64,000 bases of DNA from a bacterium (lineage in GTDB: Bacteria > Bacillota_I > Bacilli_A > RFN20 > CAG-826): NCBI GenBank assembly GCA_963605025.1, contig CAVCSZ010000004.1, forward strand, positions 5,847 through 69,846, read 5' to 3'. How positions within the stretch are numbered: position 1 is the stretch's first letter; each line of letters opens with the position of its first letter. Under the pieces are notes generated by a model. The model saw only the letters and a program-made list of their open reading frames with translations, was not told where the DNA came from and did no database searches. A program made the translations under genes and the position numbers. Below are positions 5,803 to 58,233 of the stretch, piece after piece.

Positions 5803-7251
5803 TTAACGATTAGAAGATTTAACCAAAGAAGAAATATAATCAATTTTATTTTTAAATTCTTCTAATGATAATAATCTAAATTCCCAATTTGGACTTCCAA
5901 AACTTCCTGGAGCATTAATTCTTGAAGAACTATCAAGACCTAAGAAATCTTGAATAGGTAAAATAGCGTATTCACATTCACTATTTAAAACAAATTTTAA
6001 TATTTTATCTAAAATATCTTTTCCTTCAATTTTATTAACTCTAAAAATAATTTCTAATAATTCTTTTTCTTCTTCTTTTAAAGAATTATACCAACCCATA
6101 ACAGTATCATTATCATGAGTACCAGTATAAATAATTTGATTTTTACTAGTAATAAAATTTTTATTAAATACATTAAATTCAAATACATTCATACCTTTAA
6201 AATTAAATTCATCTCTTAATTTTAAAACACTAGGTACAAGATCTCCTAAATCTTCTGCAATAATATTTTTAGTTAATCCTTCTTTTTCTAATAATTTAAA
6301 TAAAACTCTTCCTGGAGCTTCTTTCCAAACTCCATTAATAGCAGTAGGTTCACTAGATTTAATCATATAATATGTATCGAAAGCTCTAAAATGATCAATA
6401 CGTAAAATATCAAACATACTTAATGAATATTTAATTCTATTTAACCAAAAAGTAAATCCATCTCTTTCCATGTATTTCCAATCATAAATAGGATTACCCC
6501 ATCTTTGACCAGTTTCACTGAAATAATCTGGTGGTACTCCTGCTACCATTGAAGGATGATCTTTTTCATCAAGTAAAAACTCATCTTGATTACTCCAACA
6601 ATCACTGCTATTAAAACCAACATAAAAAGGAATATCTCCCATTAATAATACTCCATTTTCGTTAGCGTATTTTTTAAGTTCATTAAATTGTTTATAAGCG
6701 ATATATTGGCACCATTCAATAAATAAAATTTCATTTTTATATTCTTTAAAATCAAATTTAGAATAAGAATAAGCAGCATATTTTTCTTCTTTATCCCATT
6801 TATCCCAATCTAAATAATTATTTTTTTCAAATAAAACTTTAAATTTAGCGTAATTTTCACACCATTTATTATTTTTAATAAATTCTAAAAATTCATTAGA
6901 TTTTGTATCTTTAGTTTTTTTGAAAGCTTCTCTTAAATACTTTTCTTTATGTAATCTAGCTTCATAAAAATTAACTAATTTTGAATTTTCATTAAAATTA
7001 TCATATTTTGATAAATAATTATGTTCTTTTAACCACTTTAAAGAAATATAACAAGTATCTAAAGCACTTCCACATTCACTTTGATAAGGACTAGAACCAT
7101 ATCCTACTGGATTAAGTGGTAATAATTGCCATATTTTAATATTTGATTTTTTAAGTAAATCAACAAACTCATATGCACTTTCATAGAAATCACCAACTCC
7201 TAAAGAAGATGGTAAACTAGAAATAGGCATTAATATTCCTGTACATCTCAT
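5803..7251 (-). CDS. malQ: 4-alpha-glucanotransferase (amylomaltase, GH77)
   Basis: 482 aa. GILMPISSLPS..GVGDF start, LPLNP, GDIPFYV, RIDHFRAF and GTHDN motifs typical of GH77 MalQ. Confidence 0.9.
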   Translation of the reverse strand: MRCTGILMPISSLPSSLGVGDFYESAYEFVDLLKKSNIKIWQLLPLNPVGYGSSPYQSECGSALDTCYISLKWLKEHNYLSKYDNFNENSKLVNFYEARLHKEKYLREAFKKTKDTKSNEFLEFIKNNKWCENYAKFKVLFEKNNYLDWDKWDKEEKYAAYSYSKFDFKEYKNEILFIEWCQYIAYKQFNELKKYANENGVLLMGDIPFYVGFNSSDCWSNQDEFLLDEKDHPSMVAGVPPDYFSETGQRWGNPIYDWKYMERDGFTFWLNRIKYSLSMFDILRIDHFRAFDTYYMIKSSEPTAINGVWKEAPGRVLFKLLEKEGLTKNIIAEDLGDLVPSVLKLRDEFNFKGMNVFEFNVFNKNFITSKNQIIYTGTHDNDTVMGWYNSLKEEEKELLEIIFRVNKIEGKDILDKILKFVLNSECEYAILPIQDFLGLDSSSRINAPGSFGSPNWEFRLLSLEEFKNKIDYISSLVKSSNR

Positions 7252-7397: not shown

Positions 7398-9233
7398 ATG
7401 AATATGAGAAATGTTGCAATTATCGCACACGTTGACCATGGAAAAACTACTTTAGTTAATCAATTATTAAAATATAGTCAAACTTTTAGAGAAAACGAAA
7501 AAATTGAAGATCGTGCTATGGATAGTAACGCTATTGAAAGAGAAAGAGGTATTACTATTTTAGCTAAGACTACATCTGTTAAATATAAAGACTATAAAAT
7601 TAACATCATGGATACTCCAGGACACGCTGATTTCGGTGGTGAAGTTGAAAGAATCATGAAAATGGTTGATGGATGTTTATTATTAGTAGATGCTTTTGAA
7701 GGTACTATGCCTCAAACTAGATTCGTTTTAAAGAAAGCTTTAGAAAATCACGTTAAACCTATCGTTATTATTAATAAAGTTGATAGACCAAACGCAAATC
7801 CTGCTAAAGCAGTTGACGAAGTATTACAATTATTTATTGAATTAGGAGCACCTGATGATTTCTTAGATTTCAAAGTTGCATATACTAGTGCTTTAAATGG
7901 TACTTCCTCATTATTCCCAGATTTAGCTTCTCAAAAAGAAGGTATGGATGCTTTATTTGATTTAATTATCAGTGAAGTACCAGAACCAAAAGTTGAACAA
8001 GAAGGTCCTACTCAACTTCAAGTTGCATTATTAGATTATAATGACTACGTTGGAAGAATGGGTATTGGAAGAGTACAAAGAGGTGAAATTAAAATTAACC
8101 AACAAGTTACTTGTTCAAGAACAAACGGAACTACAAAAGGATTTAAAATCTTAAAATTATTTGGCTATCAAGGATTAAAAAGAGTTGAAATAGAAAGTGC
8201 TAAAGCAGGAGAAATTGTTGCTTTTGCTGGTTTAGCAGATATAAACGTTGGAGAAACTATTTGTGATCCAAGTAAAGTTGAAGCTTTACCTTTAATTCAT
8301 ATTGATGAACCAACTCTTCAAATGACTTTTGGAACAAATTCATCACCATTCTCTGGTCAAGATGGAAAATTATTAACTGCTAGGCAAATTGAAGATCGTT
8401 TAATGAAAGAAAAAGAAAAAGACGTTTCTTTAAAAGTAGAACGTATTCAAAATAGTGAATCATGGGTTGTTTCAGGAAGAGGTGAATTACATCTTGGTAT
8501 TTTAATTGAAAATATGAGAAGAGAAGGTTACGAATTAGAAGTTTCTCGTCCTCAAGTTATTATTAAAGTTGAAGATGGAATTAAAAAAGAACCTTATGAA
8601 GATTTATCAATTGAAGTCCCTAATGATTTCGTTGGTGATGTTATGACTTCTTTAGGTGAAAGAGATGCTGAATTAATTGATATGGACGCTAATGAAACTA
8701 CAACTAAAATCAATTATGTAATTCCATCACGTGGATTAATCGGATTTGTATCAAATTTCTTAACATTAACTAAAGGTTATGGTATTATCTCTCATACTTT
8801 TAAAGAATATCGTGAAATTTCAAAAGGTAAAATTGGAGAAAGATCAATTGGTGTTTTAGTAGCAACTTCTACTGGTCAAGCTACTCCATACGCAATTCAA
8901 CACGTTGAAGATAGAGGAACAATGTTTATTCTTCCTGGAATCGATGTTTATGAAGGTATGATTGTAGGTGAAAATAAATATGATACTGATTTAAGTGTCA
9001 ATGTATGTCAAACTAAAAATTTAACTAACCAAAGAAGTTCAAATAAAGATCAAACTGTTGTTTTAAAAACACCAAGAAAATTAACATTAGAAGCATGTTT
9101 AGATTACATTAATGTTGATGAACTTGTTGAAATCACACCTAAAACATTTAGAATGAGAAAGAAAATTTTAAATGACGCTGAAAGAAAAAAATACGAAGCA
9201 AAACAAAGAATTTTAGAAGGCGAAAATAAATAA
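7398..9233 (+). CDS. typA: translational GTPase TypA/BipA
   Basis: 611 aa. G1 [10 protein letters not shown]3 DTPGHADF, G4 NKVDR, followed by EF-G-like domains. Strong RBS AAGGAGGA upstream. Confidence 0.95.
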
Positions 9234-46140: not shown

Positions 46141-46340
46141 TTTTTAACTCCTTTTAATTAAAAAGACGCCCTTAATTTAAGGACGTCTTATACGTGGTAC
46201 CACCTTAATTTTTCTTATTTTTAAATAAGAACTCTTAATTTGTTTTTAAATTAATATAATACTTGAGACTTTAAGAATCTAATATTAACTTTCACCATCC
46301 GTTAATTCTCTAAAAATAAATTCATAAATTATTGTATTAT
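46141..46340 (-). promoter_or_regulatory. T-box riboswitch leader of leuS
   Basis: The minus-strand leader contains an AGAGA box, a distal hairpin TTAAC-GGATGGTGAAA-GTTAA, and the T-box sequence AAATTAAGGTGGTACCACG (plus-strand CGTGGTACCACCTT at 46193-46206). A terminator AAGACGTCCTT-AAATT-AAGGGCGTCTTTTT (46160-46189) precedes the RBS AAGGAG. Leu codons CUU-A and CUC-A lie on the descending side of stem I as specifier candidates. Confidence 0.85.
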
Positions 46341-46374: not shown

Positions 46375-47814
46375 TTATTTTATAATTGATTTATATAAAT
46401 TTAAATATTCATTAGCACTTTCATTCCATGAATGATCGGTTTCTAATGCATTTTTAACTAATTTATTAAATAAAGGTTTATTTTGATAAACATTTAATGC
46501 TTGAGCGCTTGTTTTCAAGGCATCACAAATATTATATCCATCAAAACCAAATCCATTTGCGGTATCTTGATTATTTATTTCATAATCAAAACAAATAACA
46601 CTATCTTTTAATCCACCTGTTCTTCTAACAATTGGTAAAGAACCATATCTTTGAGCAATCATTTGACCAAGTCCACATGGTTCAAAAGCACTAGGCATAA
46701 TGAAAAAGTCACTTGCTGCATATAAAGTATGTGCAATATTGTCATTGTAACCAATATAAACATAATTATGTGAAGGGAATTCAGCATATTGTTTATTAAA
46801 TGCTTCTTCTGCCCAATAATCACCACTTCCTAAAACTGCAAAGTTAGCTTGATTATGTGTAACAAAATCACTCATTGCTAATATTAAATCAATACCTTTT
46901 TGACTTGTTAATCTTGAAACAACTGCAAATAAAGGTAAATCAGGATTTAAACCATTATTTTTACAAAATTCTTCTTTATTTTTTACTTTATTTATTTCAA
47001 AATTTGAAGAATCATAATTTTGTACAATTGTTTTATCTTCTTTAGGATTAAATTCATCTTGATCCATTCCATTTAAGATACCAGAAAAATCTTCTTGTCT
47101 TAAAATTAAATCATACCATAATCCTTTACTACCTTCTGGAGTAGTTAATTCATAAGCATGAGTAGGTGAAACAGTTGTGATTTTATCAGCAAATTTAATT
47201 CCTGCTTTTAAAGTAGAAACCATATTTTCTAATCTAACACTTCCATTATCATAATAATCAGTACTGATTTCAAATAAATCATATAAAGATTCTCTACCTA
47301 AATAACCTTTAAATAAAGGATTATGAATAGTAATAACAGATTTAATTTTTGATAAAATCTTATCATTATTAAATTTTACTTTTAATAAACAAGGTATCAT
47401 TCCACCTTGCCAATCATGACAATGTATTACATCAACATTGTAAGGTAATTTTTTAACTAATTCTAAAGCAGCATTATCAAAATAAGCGAATCTTTCACCA
47501 TCATCTTGATAACCATATAATCCATTGTTTCTAGCAAAATATTGATCATTTTTAATAAAATAATATTCGATTCCATCATGGAATAAATGATATACTTCAC
47601 TATAACAATTTCTCCAATTCATTTTTACTGAAAAAGTAAATATTTTTTTTAAATTTGGATATTTATCATGTTTAAAATTTGAATAAAGTGGAGTGATTAC
47701 TGAAACAATATGACCTTTTTTAGCGTATTCTTTACTTAAAGAATAAGCAACATCACCTAATCCACCAGTTTTAGAGAATGGTAAACATTCACTAGTTACC
47801 ATTACGATATTCAT
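46375..47814 (-). CDS. glgA: glycogen synthase (ADP-glucose type, GT5)
   Basis: 479 aa. N-terminal SECLPFSKTGGLGDV (K-T-G-G-L motif) and C-terminal PSAFEPCGLGQM...RRTGGLKDSV. Confidence 0.93.
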   Translation of the reverse strand: MNIVMVTSECLPFSKTGGLGDVAYSLSKEYAKKGHIVSVITPLYSNFKHDKYPNLKKIFTFSVKMNWRNCYSEVYHLFHDGIEYYFIKNDQYFARNNGLYGYQDDGERFAYFDNAALELVKKLPYNVDVIHCHDWQGGMIPCLLKVKFNNDKILSKIKSVITIHNPLFKGYLGRESLYDLFEISTDYYDNGSVRLENMVSTLKAGIKFADKITTVSPTHAYELTTPEGSKGLWYDLILRQEDFSGILNGMDQDEFNPKEDKTIVQNYDSSNFEINKVKNKEEFCKNNGLNPDLPLFAVVSRLTSQKGIDLILAMSDFVTHNQANFAVLGSGDYWAEEAFNKQYAEFPSHNYVYIGYNDNIAHTLYAASDFFIMPSAFEPCGLGQMIAQRYGSLPIVRRTGGLKDSVICFDYEINNQDTANGFGFDGYNICDALKTSAQALNVYQNKPLFNKLVKNALETDHSWNESANEYLNLYKSIIK

Positions 47815-47817
47815 ATA

Positions 47818-48939
47818 TTAAATTTTCTCCCCTTGAGGAATATAAAGAGGTTCATCTTTTGTTCCAAATACTTCATCTTTACTTTGGAAAACACATAATT
47901 TATCTGCAATAACATTCTTTAAATGAACACCTTTTTTAATTTTACAATCTGAGAAAATAATTGAATCTTCTACAATTGCTCCTTCTTCTACAATAACATT
48001 ACGTGAAAGTAAAGATCCACTTACTTTGCCTTCAATATTACAACCATTAGCAATTATAGAATCTTTAACTTCACTATTTTCACCATAAATTGCAGGACAT
48101 GTATCATGAGTTCTAGTAAAGAATTTCCAATCATTACTAAATAAAGGATTTTTATCTTCATATAACATTTCTTTATTTTCTAAAGAATAATCATAATAAG
48201 ATTTTAAGCTTCTAAAATATTTAAAATATCCATCAAATTTAATAGCGTTAATGCCATCTACAAAATGTAAATGTTTAAATAATAATTCTTCAATTGTAAC
48301 TACACTTGATACATTATTAGATTTATTTAAAGCATCTACAAAGAAATCTTTATCAATAATAAATGTTTTTAATCCAATTGAACATTCATCATCAACATTT
48401 GTAACAGGTTCTAATTTTTGAACTCTTCCTAAATTATCTACAACAATTTTATTTAAACCAATATAATCATTTCCAGCATCTTTTACATCAGCATAAACCA
48501 TACTTAAAGCTTTTCCACTTTCAATATGTTTATTAATGAGTTCTTCATAATTAATTTTTGCAACAAATCCAACAGGAATAATTAAAATATATTTACAATT
48601 TGAATCATATAAGAAATAATCATTTTCTTTAATGTTATTTAAATCAGTATTATAAATTGGATTATGAATACCTTTTTCATTAATCATAAAATTTAAAAAA
48701 CCAGTTTTTGAATTTTTTAAATAAGTGTTTTCATTACCAATATGTTTAATAACACTTCTTGAATAATTTTTAATTAAAATACCAACATCATCGATTCCAC
48801 TATTAGTTAAATTAGATAAAGCAAAATCAATAAAAGCGTATCTACCTAAAACTGCAGTAGATGCTAATGGTCTTTTTTCAGTAATTAAACCAAGTTCTGG
48901 TGAATTATGAAGATTAATTAAAGCAACGACATTTTTCAT
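47818..48939 (-). CDS. glgD: glucose-1-phosphate adenylyltransferase, GlgD (regulatory) subunit
   Basis: 373 aa. GlgC-like fold but with a degenerate N-terminal G-rich loop (ALINLHNSPELGLITEKRPLASTAVLGRYAFIDFALSN). Sits between glgC and glgA as in Firmicutes glgCDA operons. Confidence 0.82.
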   Translation of the reverse strand: MKNVVALINLHNSPELGLITEKRPLASTAVLGRYAFIDFALSNLTNSGIDDVGILIKNYSRSVIKHIGNENTYLKNSKTGFLNFMINEKGIHNPIYNTDLNNIKENDYFLYDSNCKYILIIPVGFVAKINYEELINKHIESGKALSMVYADVKDAGNDYIGLNKIVVDNLGRVQKLEPVTNVDDECSIGLKTFIIDKDFFVDALNKSNNVSSVVTIEELLFKHLHFVDGINAIKFDGYFKYFRSLKSYYDYSLENKEMLYEDKNPLFSNDWKFFTRTHDTCPAIYGENSEVKDSIIANGCNIEGKVSGSLLSRNVIVEEGAIVEDSIIFSDCKIKKGVHLKNVIADKLCVFQSKDEVFGTKDEPLYIPQGEKI

Positions 48940-48941
48940 AA

Positions 48942-50075
48942 TTATTGTAAACTCCTTTCGTAATCTAAAAGAACAATTTTATCAGTTCCAACATTAATTT
49001 TTTCTTTTTCTTTAATAATTGTATTAGGACCTAAAATTGCATTTTCAACTACAGCACCTTTTTTAACCTTAACTCCAGGCATTAAAACAGAATTAATTAC
49101 TTTAGCGCCGTTTTCTACAACTACTTCATTTGAAATAACTGTATGTTTAACTTCTCCATAAATTCTTGCACCTTGATTGATTAAGCAATCTTCAACAACT
49201 GCTTCTTTTCCAATATATTGAGGCATTGAATTTGTATCTTCACTAAAAATTGTAGGGAATGTATCAAATCTAATTGTATCTTTTGTTCTATTTGAAGGTA
49301 AAAGCTCCATACTTGCTTGATGTAAAGAATCAATAGTTCCAACATCTCTCCAATAACCTTTAAAACGGAAAGCAACAAGTTTTTGTTTTTTAGCTAACAT
49401 ATTTGGGATAATATTTTTACCAAAATCATGTTCACTATTTGGATCTTTAGCGTCTTCAATTAAAGCTTGTCTTAAACTCTTATAAGTAAAGATATAAACA
49501 CCCATACTTGCTAAATTTGATTTAGGTTCTTTAGGTTTTTCAACGAATTTTGTAATACAATCTTGATCATCAACTTCCAAAATGCCAAATCTACTTGCTT
49601 CTTTCATATCAACTTCTAAAACAGAAATTGTACATTCAGCTTTTGATTCAATATGTCTTTTAATCATATCATCAAAAGTTGTTTTATAAATATGATCACC
49701 ACTTAAAATTAAAACATATTTTGGATCTTCTTCATCTAAAAAATCAATATTTTTATAAATAGCGTCAGCTGTTCCATCATACCAGTTAGCGCCTTCTTCT
49801 GTTTGACGTGGAGCTAAAGCAACACATGTTGATTCAACCCCATCAAAGCCCCATTTTTCACCGTTTCCGATATAATTATTTAAAACTACTGATTCATATT
49901 GGGTTAAAACACCAACACTGTCAATTGATGAATTTGCAACGTTAGAAAGACAAAAATCAATAATACGATACTTTCCACCAAAATAAACTGCAGGTTTAGC
50001 AATTTTTTTAGTTAAAGCATGTAAACGAGTTCCTTTTCCACCAGCAAGAATCATCGCTACAACATTTCTTCCCAT
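48942..50075 (-). CDS. glgC: glucose-1-phosphate adenylyltransferase
   Basis: 377 aa. ILAGGKGTRLHALTKKIAKPAVYFGGKYRIIDFCLSN nucleotidyltransferase loop and a C-terminal left-handed beta-helix region. RBS AAGGAGG upstream. Confidence 0.93.
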   Translation of the reverse strand: MGRNVVAMILAGGKGTRLHALTKKIAKPAVYFGGKYRIIDFCLSNVANSSIDSVGVLTQYESVVLNNYIGNGEKWGFDGVESTCVALAPRQTEEGANWYDGTADAIYKNIDFLDEEDPKYVLILSGDHIYKTTFDDMIKRHIESKAECTISVLEVDMKEASRFGILEVDDQDCITKFVEKPKEPKSNLASMGVYIFTYKSLRQALIEDAKDPNSEHDFGKNIIPNMLAKKQKLVAFRFKGYWRDVGTIDSLHQASMELLPSNRTKDTIRFDTFPTIFSEDTNSMPQYIGKEAVVEDCLINQGARIYGEVKHTVISNEVVVENGAKVINSVLMPGVKVKKGAVVENAILGPNTIIKEKEKINVGTDKIVLLDYERSLQ

Positions 50076-50101
50076 AAAGACCTCCTTTTATATATAAATA
50101 T

Positions 50102-53100
50102 TTACTTTATAGAATCGATTTTAGAGAAATTTCTTACACAACTTGAATTATTATTATGTAAGACAACAAGTGTTTCATCAACAAGTTCTGTAATATCTGC
50201 AACTTTATCAGTTGGACATGAAATAATAACTTGTAAATTAAATTTTCTTAATAATCTAACAGCTTCTTTAATTCTTCCTCTATCCATTTTAGAGAAAGCT
50301 TCATCAAATATGATTAATCTAGATGTATTAGCAAGTTCACCACCTTCATTTGTATGATAAAGTTGAGCAAATGAAGCAAGAACAGCGATATAGAATGGAG
50401 TTTGAGTTTCACCACCACTCTTTTTCTTAATCATCTTTGATAATCTTTGTTCTTCTTTTGTATCTATATTATACACTATTAAATCAAAATCTAAATAACT
50501 TCTGTAATCAGTATACTTTTCTATATTGTTTAAAAGGTCATTTGAAGCATCTTTTGTGCTGGAAGTATCAACAATTTGTTTAAATAAATCTTCCATAACA
50601 TCTTGATATTTATCAATAAATCTAGAATCACCTTCGCCACACTCTAAAATTAAATCATCTTTTAACATATCATAATAACGTTTTAATTCTGTTTTAGCTT
50701 TAACTGTAAAACGATATGAATCTTTACCAAATTGTGATTGTTTTAAAGCTTCATTTAAATTTTCAATTTGATCTTCAACATCTTCAATAGCACTTCTTAA
50801 TTTAGAAATAAAATCATCTTTAAATTGTTCAGTAGCCTTTTGATAACTATCATTAATTTTTTCAACATATTGAGGTAATCTAACATCTCTAAAATCAATT
50901 AATTCTTTATCAAAATCATCGTTAGTTTCTTTATTATAATCATAACTTAAATGATATTCATGACAATATTCTCTTCTTTCTTTTATTAAGTTATTGAAAA
51001 TATTATTGAATAAATATTGTAAACGTGAAATTTCTTGATTTGCAAAAGATCTAATATCGAGGTGTGTTTTTCCTTCACTAATAAATGAATTAAATTTCTC
51101 TTCACCTTCTAAATAAATATCATTAATTGAATAATTATTCTTTAATGATTCTTTCATTGCTAAAATATTCTTTTCTTCATTAATAATTTTTTCATTATTA
51201 ATAGATTCAATTTCTTTATTTAAAGTTCCTTTTTCTAAAATTAAAGCATCTTTACTAGTTTGTAAATCTTCAATATCTAAATCAACATCACTAATACGTT
51301 TATCTAATGAAGCAATTAAAGCAGTATCATGTTCATTTAATTCATTATTAACATATTCTAATGAATCATATAAACCAGTTAATTCATTACCTTTTTCTAA
51401 GATATTAACAAAATATTCAATTTCACCCGAAGAAATAACTTCTAAATTATTAGCTTCATTAATAATTGATTTTAAATTCTTATAAAAAGATAAATTATCA
51501 ATAAATCCTTTTAATTGATTACTCTTTTCATTTAATAAACGTTCATTAACATCTCTTCCTATAAATGATTCTAAATATAATCTAGGATTAATTTTACTCA
51601 TAGAGAAATTACGGTATAAATCACAATTTCTTGTAATACCGTTTCCACTTTCTCTTGCTTCTTCTAAAGTTTCAGCTTTTTTAAGTCTTCCAATTAAGAA
51701 ATTAGTATAACTTCTAGCGCCTTCATGACTTGTTTCAATTTCGCTTGCTAAAGAATCATAATCATAAGAATAATTTCTTTCAATTATTTTTTCTTGATCA
51801 ATTAAAGCAGTTCCATAAAAACGATATTCTGCTAATAAATCTTTTAAAATATTATATGCGTCTAAATAATATTTAGGTGCAACAAAAAGATTAAATTTTT
51901 GAGAATATAAATATCCTTCAATTGCGTTTGACCAACTTAAATCTTTGATATCGATTAAATCACAGAATAATTCAACTTCAATATCTTTATGGAATTTTTC
52001 TTTTAATTTTTCTTTTAATTCATTTTTAATAGAAACTAATCGATTATCAAAAGGTTTATTTCCTTCTTTCATTAAATTTTGTTCTTCTTTTAAAGAACCA
52101 ATCTTTTTATCTATATTACTAATTGTACGTGCAATTGAAATAGCTAAAGTAGAAACATTTTCTTTAAATAAAGATAAAACTTTCTTTAAATTGATTAAAT
52201 CATCTTTTGTAATAGATAAAACATCTTTATTTACTTTTTCTTCAAGTAAATTTCCAAATTTTATGACTTCTTTAGAAGCTGATAAAATTTCAATTATTTC
52301 TTCTACTTTATCATCTTCTAATAAATCTTTATTAATATTTGATAATTCATTTAATAAATGATCAGCTTCATTTTTATAATCTTCAATATATTTGATAATA
52401 CTTGTTTTTAATGATTCTAAATTAGTTTTAATTAATTTAATTGAATCTTCAATTTTCTTTTTATTATCATATAAATCTCTTGTAATTTGAGCAACATTAT
52501 TTTGAGCTTTATCTTGAATTAAACCAATTTTTCTATTTTGTAATGTTTCTAAATCATCATTAAAATCTTTTAATTCAACATCAATTTCATTAATTCTATC
52601 TTTTGCTTTTTTAACTTCTTCTTTGAAAGCTTCAAGTTTAGCTTCACTATTAAATAAATCACATTTTTCTATTAAATATTTATTTAATAAGAAATCTTTT
52701 TGATGTGTTTTATAATTTTCAAATAATTTAGAAATATTTTCTAATTTTTCAATTCTTGCTTTAATATTTTCACTTTCTACTTGTAATTTTCTATATTGAA
52801 GAATATTTTCTTGTAAATGTGATAAATCTAAATTTTGTTGAGGATCACAAACATATTCTGTAATAAATGTTGTAATATCAGTGATTGGAGAAAATGAAGT
52901 AGATTTCTTTAAAAGAGAGAAATATTTATCTTTTAATCCACCCATTTTTTTCTTTAAAAATTCTTGATATTGTTTATTACTATCAAAGAATTTAAAGTTT
53001 TTATCATAATTTTTATTAAAATAATTTAATAATTCTTTATATGACATTGGAATTTTGTTGTTAATAAATTCATTTTCAGGCATTTTTTCTTCTAAATTAA

Positions 53101-53482
53101 AGAAATGATGTTCTTCACTACCATCTTCAAAAGAATCAAAAACACATCCCATTACAAAATCTTTATCATTTAAATCATCATGAAATTCTAAAGCAACATA
53201 ACTTGTAAATCTTCCATTTCTTAAATATTTAAAACCACCTTCTAAAGTATCTCCAAGTTCTCCTCTTAAATATCCTTTTAAAGTACGAGAAGATTTTTCT
53301 AAAGCAGCTTTATTAAAACTTCTACCTGTTGTATCACCAAGTAAAACTACTTCAAAAGCATCAATTAAAGTTGATTTTCCACTACCATTTAAACCTGTTA
53401 AAAATACAATTGGTTTAATATCAATTGTTTCATTCCAAAAATAATGCCAGTTAATTAATTTAATCTTAGTTAATAACTTCAT
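50102..53482 (-). CDS. SMC-like ATPase, JetC/MksB-like
   Basis: 1126 aa. N-terminal head IKLINWHYF...FLTGLNGSGKSTLIDAFEVVLLGD (Walker A). About 900 aa of coiled-coil-like K/E/N/L-rich sequence. C-terminal head KKSGGETQTPFYIAVLASFAQLY (signature), RLIIFDEAFSKMD (Walker B/D-loop), LQVIISCP. RBS AGGAG 7-8 nt upstream of the ATG at 53482. Confidence 0.8.
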   Translation of the reverse strand: MKLLTKIKLINWHYFWNETIDIKPIVFLTGLNGSGKSTLIDAFEVVLLGDTTGRSFNKAALEKSSRTLKGYLRGELGDTLEGGFKYLRNGRFTSYVALEFHDDLNDKDFVMGCVFDSFEDGSEEHHFFNLEEKMPENEFINNKIPMSYKELLNYFNKNYDKNFKFFDSNKQYQEFLKKKMGGLKDKYFSLLKKSTSFSPITDITTFITEYVCDPQQNLDLSHLQENILQYRKLQVESENIKARIEKLENISKLFENYKTHQKDFLLNKYLIEKCDLFNSEAKLEAFKEEVKKAKDRINEIDVELKDFNDDLETLQNRKIGLIQDKAQNNVAQITRDLYDNKKKIEDSIKLIKTNLESLKTSIIKYIEDYKNEADHLLNELSNINKDLLEDDKVEEIIEILSASKEVIKFGNLLEEKVNKDVLSITKDDLINLKKVLSLFKENVSTLAISIARTISNIDKKIGSLKEEQNLMKEGNKPFDNRLVSIKNELKEKLKEKFHKDIEVELFCDLIDIKDLSWSNAIEGYLYSQKFNLFVAPKYYLDAYNILKDLLAEYRFYGTALIDQEKIIERNYSYDYDSLASEIETSHEGARSYTNFLIGRLKKAETLEEARESGNGITRNCDLYRNFSMSKINPRLYLESFIGRDVNERLLNEKSNQLKGFIDNLSFYKNLKSIINEANNLEVISSGEIEYFVNILEKGNELTGLYDSLEYVNNELNEHDTALIASLDKRISDVDLDIEDLQTSKDALILEKGTLNKEIESINNEKIINEEKNILAMKESLKNNYSINDIYLEGEEKFNSFISEGKTHLDIRSFANQEISRLQYLFNNIFNNLIKERREYCHEYHLSYDYNKETNDDFDKELIDFRDVRLPQYVEKINDSYQKATEQFKDDFISKLRSAIEDVEDQIENLNEALKQSQFGKDSYRFTVKAKTELKRYYDMLKDDLILECGEGDSRFIDKYQDVMEDLFKQIVDTSSTKDASNDLLNNIEKYTDYRSYLDFDLIVYNIDTKEEQRLSKMIKKKSGGETQTPFYIAVLASFAQLYHTNEGGELANTSRLIIFDEAFSKMDRGRIKEAVRLLRKFNLQVIISCPTDKVADITELVDETLVVLHNNNSSCVRNFSKIDSIK

Positions 53483-54134
53483 CTTGAATCTCCTTTAATG
53501 AATTATCTTCATTACCGTTTTCTTCTGTTTTTATTTCATCTAAAGCTTCACTTATTGCTCTAATTCTATCATTATCAATTGCGTAAACTATTGATGGTAA
53601 AATATAAAAAGCAACATTTCCTTCATCAAAATTACCACTAACTTTAGAAATTAAGTTGTGATTTAATAAAAATCTTAATGATTTAGATAAATTTCTAGCA
53701 GTTAATTTTTTATTAGGTAAAACAATTCCATGTTCTAACATATATCTAATAAGTAAAGGACTTGTTACATATATAGCTTCATTAGTAGATGCACTTTGAT
53801 CTTTTTCTTTTTCATAAATTAATCTTAATGCAAATAATGTAAGAGAAGTTTCTCTATCTAATTTTATTCTATTATCGCCTTCTAAATTAATTAAAGTAAT
53901 GACTCCTAAAATAACATCTTTTTCAATATGCCATCCAGAAAAAGATAAATAATCGTCTACTAATTCATAATATTTTTCAATAAAACGATATTCTTTAGAA
54001 ATACGCATTGATTTTTCTCTTGTATCAAAATAATCTCTAACAATAAATCCTTTTAATAATAATGCATTAACAGAACTTTGAAAATCATTCTTTTCACTAT
54101 AATTTAATTTATTATATTCTTCTTGAAAGTTCAT
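53466..54134 (-). CDS. JetB/MksE-like small subunit (assigned mainly by position)
   Basis: 222 aa. ATGA overlap with the upstream ORF and a 17-nt overlap with the downstream ATPase gene. Size and helical/winged-helix-like pattern (LLLKGFIV..., LTLFALRLIYEK, LRFLLNHNLISKV) fit the DUF4194/MksE class. Homology not verifiable by eye. Confidence 0.5.
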   Translation of the reverse strand: MNFQEEYNKLNYSEKNDFQSSVNALLLKGFIVRDYFDTREKSMRISKEYRFIEKYYELVDDYLSFSGWHIEKDVILGVITLINLEGDNRIKLDRETSLTLFALRLIYEKEKDQSASTNEAIYVTSPLLIRYMLEHGIVLPNKKLTARNLSKSLRFLLNHNLISKVSGNFDEGNVAFYILPSIVYAIDNDRIRAISEALDEIKTEENGNEDNSLKEIQDEVIN

Positions 54135-55558
54135 CTTTCATCTCCTTTAGTGTCTTTTTTAGTATAAGTAAATAATGGAATAAGATAATTACAATTTACT
54201 ACTTTTTCATTACTTGAATCATCTACAACATAAAATGAATTTTCATCATTTTTAACTGTAGCTAAAATTAAGCAAATCAATGAATCAATATTATTCAATT
54301 TAATATCTTTTGAAGTAATTTCATTTTTATTTCCAAAACATTCTTCCATAAATGAATAAATTTTTTCATCTGTATAAACATTTTTAGTTTCTTCTAAAAA
54401 GTTTTGCATAATAAAATCACCAGCATCATCAAATGAAATAATTTCAAGAGGTGAATTGTCATTTTTAAATTTCTTTAAAACAGGAAGAGTTATTGAATAT
54501 GAATCAATAAATCCTGTTTCATAAAAATAATTTGAATCATCAATTAAATTTAAAATTTTATTTCTTACATCGTAATTTCTATAATTACTAGCGTATTTTT
54601 TAACAATATTTTCTAAATATCCTTTAATAGATTTATCATTATTATTTAAATATAAAATCTTATTAGTACTTGCTTTAGTGTAATTAGCGTTTTCTTTATC
54701 AATATTAGAAATTAATCCATTTAAAGATTCATATGTATCAGTAATATAATTTATCTTTTGAATAATTTCACTTTCAATTTCTTCTCTATTATTAGTTTTT
54801 GAATTTAAAGAAGCTTGTTGTATTAATTTTTCTCTAATTTCTTTATCATTTAACCAATTTGTTAATATTTTAATAATTGGTCTTCTAAATTTAGCAACAC
54901 TATCAAATGTTTTTAAAGGATGATAAAATCTATCACTAATTCTATTCTTATAAATATCAAAATATGTATGTAAAACATCATTAGTTTCAAATATAGCACT
55001 TAATCTATTTTCAAAAATTCTAATAGAATGCATTAAAGTAACTAATTCTACTTTTAATTTTTTAGTATTTTCATAACATCTTAATAAAGTAGCATAAAGT
55101 AAATCATCCATCTCTTCTTCTTCAAGTTTTAATTCACTATAAGTAGAATGTACTAAAGCATTATATGGACTTTCTTCTTCACTAACAATTTCATTAAATG
55201 TTTTTATTAAAGATATAGTGTATGCTGGTAAAACAATAATTTCCTCATTATTATCTAAATCCATCATTACATCAATCCATCCTGTTTCTTCTAATTTTCT
55301 TAAAATATAATTAGCTTTACTAGGAATTGTTGTTAAATTAAGATCTTCATCATCTTTATTTAACTCATCATATACATCAAATTTATTAAGCTCTATTTCT
55401 TTAGATTTTAAAGCACTTAAAAAATCATTCTTTTTAATAACTGCTTCTTCATTTTGAAGTAATGAATATAAAATTTCTAAACTTTCAATATAAATTTCAC
55501 GATTTTTACCTTGAAATATAGAAAAATAATTGTTTGGTACTATGTTAAATAAATTCAT
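54131..55558 (-). CDS. JetA/MksF-like (kleisin-like) subunit (assigned mainly by position)
   Basis: 475 aa, first gene of the coupled trio. Size and order match JetA/MksF. The sequence is highly N/K/E/I-rich with no motif I can recognise. Confidence 0.45.
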   Translation of the reverse strand: MNLFNIVPNNYFSIFQGKNREIYIESLEILYSLLQNEEAVIKKNDFLSALKSKEIELNKFDVYDELNKDDEDLNLTTIPSKANYILRKLEETGWIDVMMDLDNNEEIIVLPAYTISLIKTFNEIVSEEESPYNALVHSTYSELKLEEEEMDDLLYATLLRCYENTKKLKVELVTLMHSIRIFENRLSAIFETNDVLHTYFDIYKNRISDRFYHPLKTFDSVAKFRRPIIKILTNWLNDKEIREKLIQQASLNSKTNNREEIESEIIQKINYITDTYESLNGLISNIDKENANYTKASTNKILYLNNNDKSIKGYLENIVKKYASNYRNYDVRNKILNLIDDSNYFYETGFIDSYSITLPVLKKFKNDNSPLEIISFDDAGDFIMQNFLEETKNVYTDEKIYSFMEECFGNKNEITSKDIKLNNIDSLICLILATVKNDENSFYVVDDSSNEKVVNCNYLIPLFTYTKKDTKGDER

Positions 55559-55683
55559 AATTCTAAAATAAATATACCTTAATATTTTAACATTTTTAAC
55601 ATATATAAAAAAGAAATTATATTAACAATTTCTAATTTTTTTTAAATTTTATTTTAAAAATAAATTTTATAATAAAAAAATAT

Positions 55684-55746: not shown

Positions 55747-55938
55747 ATGTCTAGAGTTTGTCCTATTACTGGAAAACACCCAATTAGTGGTAATAAACGT
55801 TCCCATTCCCTCATTGCAACACGTAGAAGATGGGATGTAAATCTCCATACTTATAAAGTTGAAATTGATGGTCAAATTTGTAAGGTAAGAATGAGTGCAA
55901 GAGCTTATCGTACCCTTCATAAATCATTAAATAAATAA
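55747..55938 (+). CDS. rpmB: 50S ribosomal protein L28
   Basis: 63 aa. MSRVCPITGKHPISGNKRSHSLIATRRRWDVNLH... is the conserved L28 sequence. Strong RBS. Confidence 0.95.
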   Translation: MSRVCPITGKHPISGNKRSHSLIATRRRWDVNLHTYKVEIDGQICKVRMSARAYRTLHKSLNK

Positions 55939-57348: not shown

Positions 57349-58233
57349 TTATTTTCTTATACCAAACATTCTTATTAAAAATGGAGTAGATTTCTTCATT
57401 TCTTTTTTATTATTAAATAAATTAAAAATATCATTTTTCATTTCTATCGCACTATGATATCTTAATTTTTTATCTTTATTAGTAGATTTAAAAATAATAT
57501 TTTCAACTTCTTTTGGTAAATTAGGCATAAATTTTAAAGGTGAACAAATATTTTCATTAACATGTAATAAAGCAACTTTTTGAGGATTATCGTCATCAAA
57601 AGGTAAATTTCCAGTTAATAATTCAAAAAAAGTAATGCCTAAAGCATAAATATCACTTTGTTCATCTGGAGTTTTTCCATGAATAACTTCAGGTGCTAAA
57701 TATTGAACAGTTCCAAGTACTGTACCATTATTATTAACATTATCCTTAGAATTTTTAACAATAGATATACCAAAATCAGTTAATTTTAAAACTCCATTAC
57801 TTCCATAAAAAGCATTTTGAGGTTTTATATCACAATGAATAATATTTTTTGAATGAATATAAATAACTGCATCTAAAAATTGCATCATTATTAATAAACT
57901 TTCATATAATGAAAAATATCTTTTAAAAGTTAATGCATCTTTTAAAGTTTGACCTTTTTGATATTCATTAACTATAAACATTCTTTCATCTACTTCTCCA
58001 ATATCAAAAATTTTAACAATATTTATATGATCTAAACTAGCACTTATTCTTGCTTCATTTTCAAATCTTTTAATATTATTAGGGTCTTTACAAATTTCAG
58101 AATCTAAAACTTTAATAGCAACAGGTCTTCTAAAAATAATATCTTTAGCTTCAAAAACTTCACTACTTCCACCATGTCCAATAACTTCTTTAATTTTATA
58201 TCTATCTGATAATAAATCACCAATTTTAATCAT
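57349..58233 (-). CDS. Hanks-type Ser/Thr protein kinase, short soluble form (no TM/PASTA region)
   Basis: 294 aa. G-loop GHGGSSEV, VAIKVL lysine, catalytic loop HCDIKPQN (Cys in place of the RD arginine), DFGIS, APE. The ORF ends about 25 aa after the kinase domain. Confidence 0.88.
   Translation of the reverse strand: MIKIGDLLSDRYKIKEVIGHGGSSEVFEAKDIIFRRPVAIKVLDSEICKDPNNIKRFENEARISASLDHINIVKIFDIGEVDERMFIVNEYQKGQTLKDALTFKRYFSLYESLLIMMQFLDAVIYIHSKNIIHCDIKPQNAFYGSNGVLKLTDFGISIVKNSKDNVNNNGTVLGTVQYLAPEVIHGKTPDEQSDIYALGITFFELLTGNLPFDDDNPQKVALLHVNENICSPLKFMPNLPKEVENIIFKSTNKDKKLRYHSAIEMKNDIFNLFNNKKEMKKSTPFLIRMFGIRK

Follow-up and report, generated by a model that had tools for sequence, protein, structure and literature searches.

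Can the motor of a plasmid-restricting Wadjet system outlive its nuclease, and what would it then do in the cell? This question is raised by a three-gene operon located in a 64,000-nucleotide (nt) stretch of bacterial DNA, hereafter referred to as the window (GenBank assembly GCA_963605025.1, contig CAVCSZ010000004.1, positions 5,847 to 69,846 of the forward strand; GTDB lineage Bacillota_I; Bacilli_A; RFN20; CAG-826). The operon encodes JetA, JetB and JetC, the last being an ATPase similar to structural maintenance of chromosomes (SMC) proteins, and it carries no gene for the fourth Wadjet component, the nuclease JetD. The results presented below describe an intact motor retained across a whole clade, and we lean towards a housekeeping role for it. 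The three open reading frames (ORFs) are as follows.

54131-55558, minus strand: jetA (ORF 1), 475 amino acids, kleisin subunit of type I Wadjet
53466-54134, minus strand: jetB (ORF 2), 222 amino acids, KITE subunit (DUF4194)
50102-53482, minus strand: jetC (ORF 3), 1126 amino acids, SMC-like ATPase whose heads are split, with long arms of coiled coil and the hinge around residues 500-630

The coordinates and lengths of these coupled genes agree exactly with those given in the original prediction, which was made from the sequence of the window alone, and both overlaps were read: the start codon of jetB and the stop codon of jetA share the bases ATGA in the sequence ...GAAAGATGAAC, and jetB and jetC overlap by 17 nt, with an AAGGAG ribosome-binding site located 8 nt 5' of the jetC ATG.

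The operon encodes a type I Wadjet motor

JetA matched the Pfam family PF18982 (JetA, DUF5716) with an E-value of 6.6e-83 over profile positions 2-434 of 434, and the PADLOC model JetA1 (PDLC00449) with 1.5e-113 over positions 1-463 of 464. For JetB, the corresponding matches were to PF13835 (DUF4194/JetB; 4.4e-15) and to JetB1 (PDLC00502; 8.7e-64, model positions 1-211 of 214), while JetC matched the PADLOC model JetC1 (PDLC00519) with E = 0 and 1084.8 bits over positions 1-1088 of 1097, its heads corresponding to the Pfam domains AAA_29 and SbcC_Walker_B. The subunits had originally been assigned by size, order and coupling, and the Pfam matches and full-length PADLOC matches, including the similarity of the first two proteins to JetA and JetB that had been proposed as a test, bear this assignment out. 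The accompanying impression that the A and B subunits are very diverged proved wrong at the profile level, since both show full-length matches to the JetA and JetB profiles. Nor does the kleisin belong to the DUF3375/MksF family, against which a test had been suggested: DUF3375 gave no match at E <= 1 in the trio, and the best match of JetA was the type I family PF18982.

A profile built from relatives of the window JetC matched the Escherichia coli JetC structure 8as8 at 1.9e-21, the JetC structures 8as8 and 9qxt in the range of 1e-21 to 1e-23, and also Pseudomonas aeruginosa JetC (8dk2); over positions 431-631 it matched SMC hinge structures. The ATPase residues, comprising Walker A (G35, K36, T38), the signature (S1022, G1023, G1024, E1025) and Walker B (D1060, E1061), were invariant in an alignment of 14 sequences reaching down to 34% identity, so that the catalytic motifs, which had looked intact in the single sequence, are indeed preserved.

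Other SMC-related identities were considered and rejected. The match of JetC to SMC_N reached 19.9 bits, below the cut-off of 40, no Pfam hinge match was obtained, and its partners are JetA and JetB, which rules out Smc-ScpAB. The only link to MukBEF was a marginal match of the JetC N-terminus to MukB_N (PF04310; 25.2 bits against a cut-off of 23), which covers residues 7-60 and only the P-loop region, and the Pfam MukE and MukF profiles found no match in the trio. An identity as a RecN-, SbcC- or RecF-like protein was excluded as well. The matches to SbcC_Walker_B and AAA_23 reflect generic head domains, it is JetC1 that the ATPase matches over its full length, and JetA and JetB accompany it; its grouping is with JetC and with none of these other families. 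NCBIfam yielded only a sub-threshold match to the type II model TIGR02680. Judged by its sequence, the locus encodes a complete and intact type I Wadjet motor, consisting of the JetA kleisin, the JetB KITE protein and the JetC ATPase, without JetD.

JetD is missing from the loci of a whole clade

The absence of a JetD-like gene from the locus, reported in the original prediction, was confirmed in all six frames of the window using a hidden Markov model (HMM) built from 28 JetD1 proteins, with filters off and at E <= 10. The same model found no JetD in 41 related loci, none of them longer than about 23 kb, of which 36 originated from a species scan and five were metagenome contigs; the search covered the whole window and, in the relatives, jetABC with its flanks of about 10 kb. 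The seeds of the model were validated through two representatives, both identified as JetD1 by PADLOC (1e-134 and 1e-121).

The species sample was obtained by scanning with a JetC alignment, taking one genome per species, and comprised the best 80 loci, with JetC identities of 30-67%. A JetD-like ORF was found 3' of jetC in 43 of the sampled loci (JetD+ below), usually overlapping the jetC stop codon. Most of these ORFs are about 410-480 amino acids long, some run off the end of a contig, and in one clade they are split. The split form occurs in five Clostridium or Clostridia species represented by metagenome-assembled genomes (MAGs; L038, L041, L044, L046 and L057), where JetD is encoded by separate adjacent ORFs 3' of jetC. 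At locus L044, the ORF at 7450-8196 corresponds to the N-terminal part of the 409-position JetD1 model (1-244) and the ORF at 8219-8656 to the C-terminal part (264-405); the 146-residue C-terminal ORF recurs in L057 and L038, and L041 and L046 are split otherwise. Since the split recurs across species, it looks like a genuinely divided nuclease rather than a sequencing error.

On a neighbour-joining tree of 81 JetC sequences, the JetD-less loci group in one clade, with a bootstrap of 100/100 for a core of 32 taxa and 87/100 for 36 taxa including L034/35 and L047/51. Because the tree unites these loci, a single loss of jetD in their common ancestor would be the parsimonious explanation. Two other loci, L050 and L070, are the only ones that lack JetD within the fetched flanks though nested in JetD+ clades; they look like recent, sporadic losses or relocations, unlike the ancient clade-wide loss. 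The closest sampled JetD+ relatives of the window JetC are Firmicutes type I systems, with identities of 30-39%.

The records of the JetD-less clade bear titles such as Candidatus Onthovivens (Bacilli in the NCBI taxonomy), Clostridium sp. CAG:288 and Firmicutes bacterium CAG:449, along with 'uncultured Mollicutes' and MAGs of Bacilli, Bacillales and Erysipelotrichaceae, names that we take to correspond to the GTDB order RFN20. The lineage consists of low-GC gut Bacilli known mostly from MAGs, and the protein database contains hundreds of clusters, formed at 90% identity, whose JetC is 57-85% identical to that of the window. Three contigs with a jetABC-glgCDA locus of the low-GC Bacilli type, L011, L012 and L027, bear the names Slackia isoflavoniconvertens, Parabacteroides goldsteinii and uncultured Prevotella sp., respectively, which are probably binning or labelling errors in MAGs. 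No description of a JetD-less type I Wadjet lineage was found in the literature searched. Defence finders that require all four Wadjet genes probably do not report such loci, and the lineage has therefore probably gone unnoticed so far.

jetABC evolves as part of the core genome

In the window, the operon lies between a ribosomal protein gene and the genes of glycogen synthesis.

55747-55938, plus strand: rpmB, divergent gene upstream of jetA
46375-50075, minus strand: glgC-glgD-glgA, co-oriented neighbours 3' of jetABC, identified from the ORF list and the Pfam content of orthologous neighbours

Both flanks had been named in the original prediction, with glgC starting 26 nt 3' of jetC, and were found as described in the ORF list and the junction sequence. 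The core-gene context, initially deduced from this one locus, is real and conserved across the whole JetD-less clade. The glgC gene is located zero to three genes 3' of jetC in 28 loci, including some with a JetC identity of only about 35%, and the order jetA-jetB-jetC-glgC-glgD-glgA-leuS-tex is identical on a 1.08-Mb contig and a 440-kb scaffold. The proteins encoded there show identities to those of the window of 55-56% for JetA, 55-59% for JetB, 58-61% for JetC, 57-61% for GlgA, 50% for GlgD, 72-73% for GlgC and 73-76% for LeuS.

Across 26 genomes, pairwise distances of JetC correlate with those of GlgA (r = 0.93) and GlgC (r = 0.88); for comparison, r was 0.93 between GlgC and GlgA and 0.98 between JetA and JetC. 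The ratio of non-synonymous to synonymous substitution rates (dN/dS), calculated by the Nei-Gojobori method for six close species pairs, was 0.02-0.16 for jetA, jetB and jetC, and the values for glgC, glgD and glgA in the same pairs were indistinguishable from these; for jetA alone, dN/dS was 0.035-0.14 in the relatives. The synteny, co-divergence and dN/dS data together indicate vertical descent under purifying selection rather than a mobile defence island or a remnant: the jetABC genes of the JetD-less lineage are inherited vertically at a fixed chromosomal site beside glgCDA, and the selection acting on them matches that on their metabolic neighbours. Patchy spread, variable island context and horizontal transfer, the hallmarks of defence systems, were not observed, given the synteny with glgCDA, the confinement to one clade and the correlations of 0.88-0.93.

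Changes in JetC and JetB that accompany the absence of JetD

Comparison of 43 JetD+ and 36 JetD-less JetC sequences, using the residue numbering of the window protein, revealed a motif in the C-terminal coiled-coil arm, G793-x-P-R796-[FY]-x-x-E800...F814 (about 51041-51106 of the window, minus strand), which is near-invariant in the former and variable in the latter. Among the 43 JetD+ sequences, G is present in 41, R or K in 43, E or Q in 43, and F or Y in 42. The motif could mark a JetD- or JetA-related contact in JetD+ systems, or a joint or elbow of the arm. The sporadic JetD-less locus L070 retains it in the form GLPRYxxAL. Altogether, 22 JetC columns are conserved in JetD+ and altered in JetD-less sequences. 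Ten of the 22 cluster in the hinge (residues 531-629), where several have moved to another conserved residue, for example from L to A at 609 and from Y to N at 531, which suggests that the hinge has been remodelled in JetD-less JetC.

The aCAP domain of JetD docks on the 'larynx' of JetC via E. coli F919, and possibly on the N-terminal helix of JetB (10.1101/2023.11.03.565488). The position of F919 on the window JetC is ambiguous, since two alignments disagree: a 21-sequence profile compared with 8as8 places it at 951, four residues upstream of F955, whereas in the pairwise phmmer alignment with P. aeruginosa JetC the RF motif of the latter falls on R954-F955; a search with the C-terminal 199 residues left the F919 region unaligned. 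In the segment before F955, where the profile alignment locates F919, JetD+ sequences carry hydrophobic L/I-F-S and JetD-less ones acidic E-D-E. Together with the variation in the arm motif, this change may reflect relaxed constraint at sites where JetD+ systems are constrained. The JetB N-terminus is conserved in both groups, reading MWxExYEKL in JetD+ and MFEEEFxKL in JetD-less proteins.

Transcription signals and neighbouring genes

The jetC stop codon, TAA, is followed by 26 nt containing AAAGGAGG and then by the glgC ATG. Among closer relatives with glgC directly after jetC, this gap is 5-71 nt; it is 139-308 nt in two more distant ones. The signals found around the six genes are listed below.

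55616-55645, minus strand: best sigma-70-like promoter match 5' of jetA (TTAAAA, 18-nt spacer, TATAAT; consensus match only)
50076-50101, minus strand: jetC-glgC junction of 26 nt, with the ribosome-binding site AAAGGAGG and without a terminator
46163-46189, minus strand: hairpin of 12 pairs with a T-run, located after glgA; the first terminator-like one 3' of jetA on the coding strand

The tight jetC-glgC junction suggests a single six-gene transcript, and no terminator-like hairpin was found on the coding strand between jetA and the end of glgA; jetABC and glgCDA are probably transcribed together. The promoter match falls within the 188-nt intergenic region between rpmB and jetA, and constitutes weak evidence, because sigma-70-like matches in this AT-rich DNA are no commoner than in shuffled sequence. 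The GC content of the jetABC locus (0.21-0.24) is similar to that of the remaining window (0.18-0.28), and the Rfam and tRNA scans detected nothing relevant to the locus. There is no obvious functional rationale for the physical linkage of jetABC and glgCDA.

In many JetD-less loci (L004, 7349-7831, minus strand; L008, 1378-1863, minus strand; L018, 7388-7828, minus strand; and about eight more), a divergent gene located 50-210 nt upstream of jetA codes for a protein of about 145-161 amino acids. As read from the sequence, it has two apparent transmembrane segments and ends in ...RFPNIKL, and the L004 copy has no recorded Pfam match. The window contains no homologue of it, the upstream position being occupied there by rpmB. 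On the 1.08-Mb contig (L001, 50-1922), about 6-8 kb upstream of jetA and not adjacent to jetABC, two opposed fragments of type I restriction specificity subunits (Methylase_S) surround a recombinase of the phage integrase family, an arrangement that resembles an hsdS shufflon. Elsewhere in the window, a PrkC-like Ser/Thr kinase gene (57349-58233, minus strand; 294 amino acids) is located beside a PP2C phosphatase gene and appears to encode a kinase domain without a transmembrane or PASTA region. The genes of glycogen synthesis, glgC, glgD and glgA, are retained in what is a very AT-rich and apparently small genome; the ORF at 5803-7251 (minus strand) reads as 4-alpha-glucanotransferase-like.

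Comparison with known SMC-like systems

The type I Wadjet systems JetABCD of E. coli GF4-3 (8as8/8bfn) and P. aeruginosa PA14 (8dk2) share with the window locus the same three protein families, their order and their coupling. Unlike in these systems, the Toprim nuclease JetD (DUF3322/DUF2220) is not encoded with the operon, either in the window or at the sampled loci of the clade. The locus is neither patchy nor island-borne, being vertically inherited at its fixed position beside glgCDA, and its JetC has lost the arm motif GxPR[FY]xxE...F, has an acidic segment before F955 and carries many switched hinge residues.

The closest functional analogy is MksBEF of Pseudomonas aeruginosa, also a three-gene operon for a kleisin, a KITE protein and an SMC protein without a nuclease. 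The kleisin of Pseudomonas, MksF, belongs to DUF3375, while that of the window is a type I JetA (PF18982) with no DUF3375 match, a separation at the level of the family. Since the kleisin family differs and the nearest JetD+ relatives in the sample come from Firmicutes type I systems, the JetD-less lineage appears to represent an independent nuclease loss on the Firmicutes side, separate from Pseudomonas MksBEF. Although it belongs neither to complete Wadjet nor to MksBEF, by analogy the system most likely works as a Pseudomonas-type MksBEF complex.

MukBEF of Enterobacteria and their relatives, an SMC complex with a dimeric kleisin, is considered to derive from a Wadjet-like ancestor and to have replaced Smc-ScpAB (PMC10586767). 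The window complex is of the same dimeric-kleisin type, and the N-terminus of its JetC weakly matches MukB_N as described above, but the similarity is restricted to the P-loop region and MukE and MukF have no counterparts by profile. MksBEFG/EptABCD of Corynebacterium and Mycobacterium, SMC-like plasmid defence systems of the same superfamily, are reported to need the MksG/EptD nuclease (PMC10123090); unlike them, the locus has no MksG/EptD gene.

Proposed function and alternative explanations

Purified JetABC lacking JetD has ATPase activity, forms DNA loops by extrusion and compacts circular DNA, while cleavage strictly requires JetD (PMC10889018). The JetABC complex of the JetD-less lineage would accordingly still load onto DNA, hydrolyse ATP and extrude loops, and, having no Toprim nuclease, it would be unable to cleave DNA, so that a plasmid-restriction motor could have been domesticated into housekeeping chromosome folding or segregation along the route proposed for Pseudomonas MksBEF and MukBEF. 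We consider it fairly probable that one ancient loss of JetD was followed by such domestication, leaving an SMC complex that extrudes loops without a nuclease and is comparable to MksBEF or MukBEF. This condensin-like function, one of two alternatives in the original prediction, is favoured by the conserved synteny, the vertical co-inheritance and the housekeeping level of purifying selection. One could further hypothesise that JetABC is now, in these gut Bacilli with small genomes, the main or sole chromosomal condensin in place of Smc-ScpAB, a second and independent replacement of the MukBEF kind, although we regard this extension as doubtful. In a BLAST comparison of the window and 85 loci (about 1.5 Mb) with Bacillus subtilis Smc, ScpA, ScpB, Rnc and the FtsY NG domain, only the JetC P-loop was matched; at about 20 kb per genome the result is uninformative on whole genomes.

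The other original alternative was a DNA-sensing Wadjet core that still restricts plasmids or phages with an effector encoded elsewhere, either an unlinked JetD or a non-homologous nuclease docking on the JetC larynx and the JetB N-terminus. Such an effector could lie in the rest of the genomes, as the JetD search was confined to the window and the flanks of the relatives, and the surfaces it would need seem partly preserved: the JetB N-terminal helix is conserved, and F955, in an RF(I/L) motif that aligns with the RF of P. aeruginosa and thereby with the JetD-docking F919 of E. coli, is F or Y in 36 of the 36 JetD-less sequences. However, F955 is invariant in JetD+ proteins too, alongside K958, Y959, L966 and F967, and looks like a part of the structural core, the profile alignment puts F919 at 951 instead, and the arm motif specific to JetD+ proteins has decayed. 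Moreover, a JetD-like ORF follows jetC in the 43 JetD+ loci, so that a separation of the two would be unprecedented in the sample, and no JetD was detected either in the window or, at a distance of up to about 10 kb from the trio, in any of the 41 related loci. There is no conserved candidate for another effector beside the trio, the only recurrent extra neighbour being the small two-transmembrane protein that the window lacks; a cis-encoded effector was rejected after the downstream genes had been read, from their N-terminal sequences, as glgC, leuS, rsmE-like, miaB-like, membrane and sporulation genes. Taking into account also that defence systems do not typically keep their synteny across an order or evolve like housekeeping genes, we retain the unlinked effector as an unlikely alternative.

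A restriction function could also dispense with a nuclease, if JetABC fully extruded plasmid or phage circles and compacted or silenced them, as Smc5/6 does with extrachromosomal DNA. Without JetD, JetABC compacts DNA circles and stalls on them (PMC10889018), and the motor, the kleisin and the KITE protein are all intact under strong purifying selection. Nevertheless, published JetABCD restriction needs JetD and its catalytic residues (PMC10586767, 10.1101/2023.11.03.565488, PMC10889018), such a mode of action has no bacterial precedent, and we think it quite improbable, even though the core-genome behaviour does not separate it from a housekeeping role. That the operon is a decaying Wadjet remnant left by the deletion of jetD, or an artefact of assembly or annotation, is barely credible. 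Sporadic JetD-less loci inside JetD+ clades (L050 and L070) show that JetD can be missing in isolated cases, but in the lineage studied here all three ORFs are intact, the catalytic motifs are invariant, and the dN/dS and conservation data rule out a pseudogene; the same architecture recurs in more than 35 independently assembled genomes, at JetC identities down to about 35%, which argues against an artefact.

Several points weigh against domestication to a housekeeping role. A chromosomal function is not known for any type I JetABC, and the evidence on JetD and Smc-ScpAB extends only to the window and about 10 kb of flanks per relative. Because F955, the docking residue by the pairwise alignment to P. 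aeruginosa, and the JetB helix MFEEEFxKL, a predicted JetD contact, stay conserved, a docking partner could exist. The differences between JetD+ and JetD-less sequences are confounded with phylogeny, since they all come from a single clade, and the co-transcription of jetABC with glgCDA is deduced only from how closely the genes are spaced and from the missing terminator-like hairpin.

Significance

It has been proposed in the SMC field that MukBEF and MksBEF began as defence systems and later became chromosome organisers (PMC10586767), an idea that rests on very diverged proteins. The locus described here is a possible intermediate: it is unmistakably type I Wadjet, its nuclease is gone, and it behaves like a core element across a deep clade, while the JetD-less trio can be compared directly with JetD+ sister systems. 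It raises the questions of which features change as a plasmid-cleaving SMC motor takes on a new role, whether JetABC works on a chromosome of about 1 Mb, and whether it can substitute for Smc-ScpAB. If the replacement of the chromosomal condensin were true, domestication would be visible while the proteins are still recognisably Wadjet, and its changes would be readable in the decayed arm motif, the acidified surface by the JetD-docking site and the remodelled hinge. In the jetABC genes of these gut Bacilli we may be seeing a defence system on its way to becoming an organiser of chromosomes.

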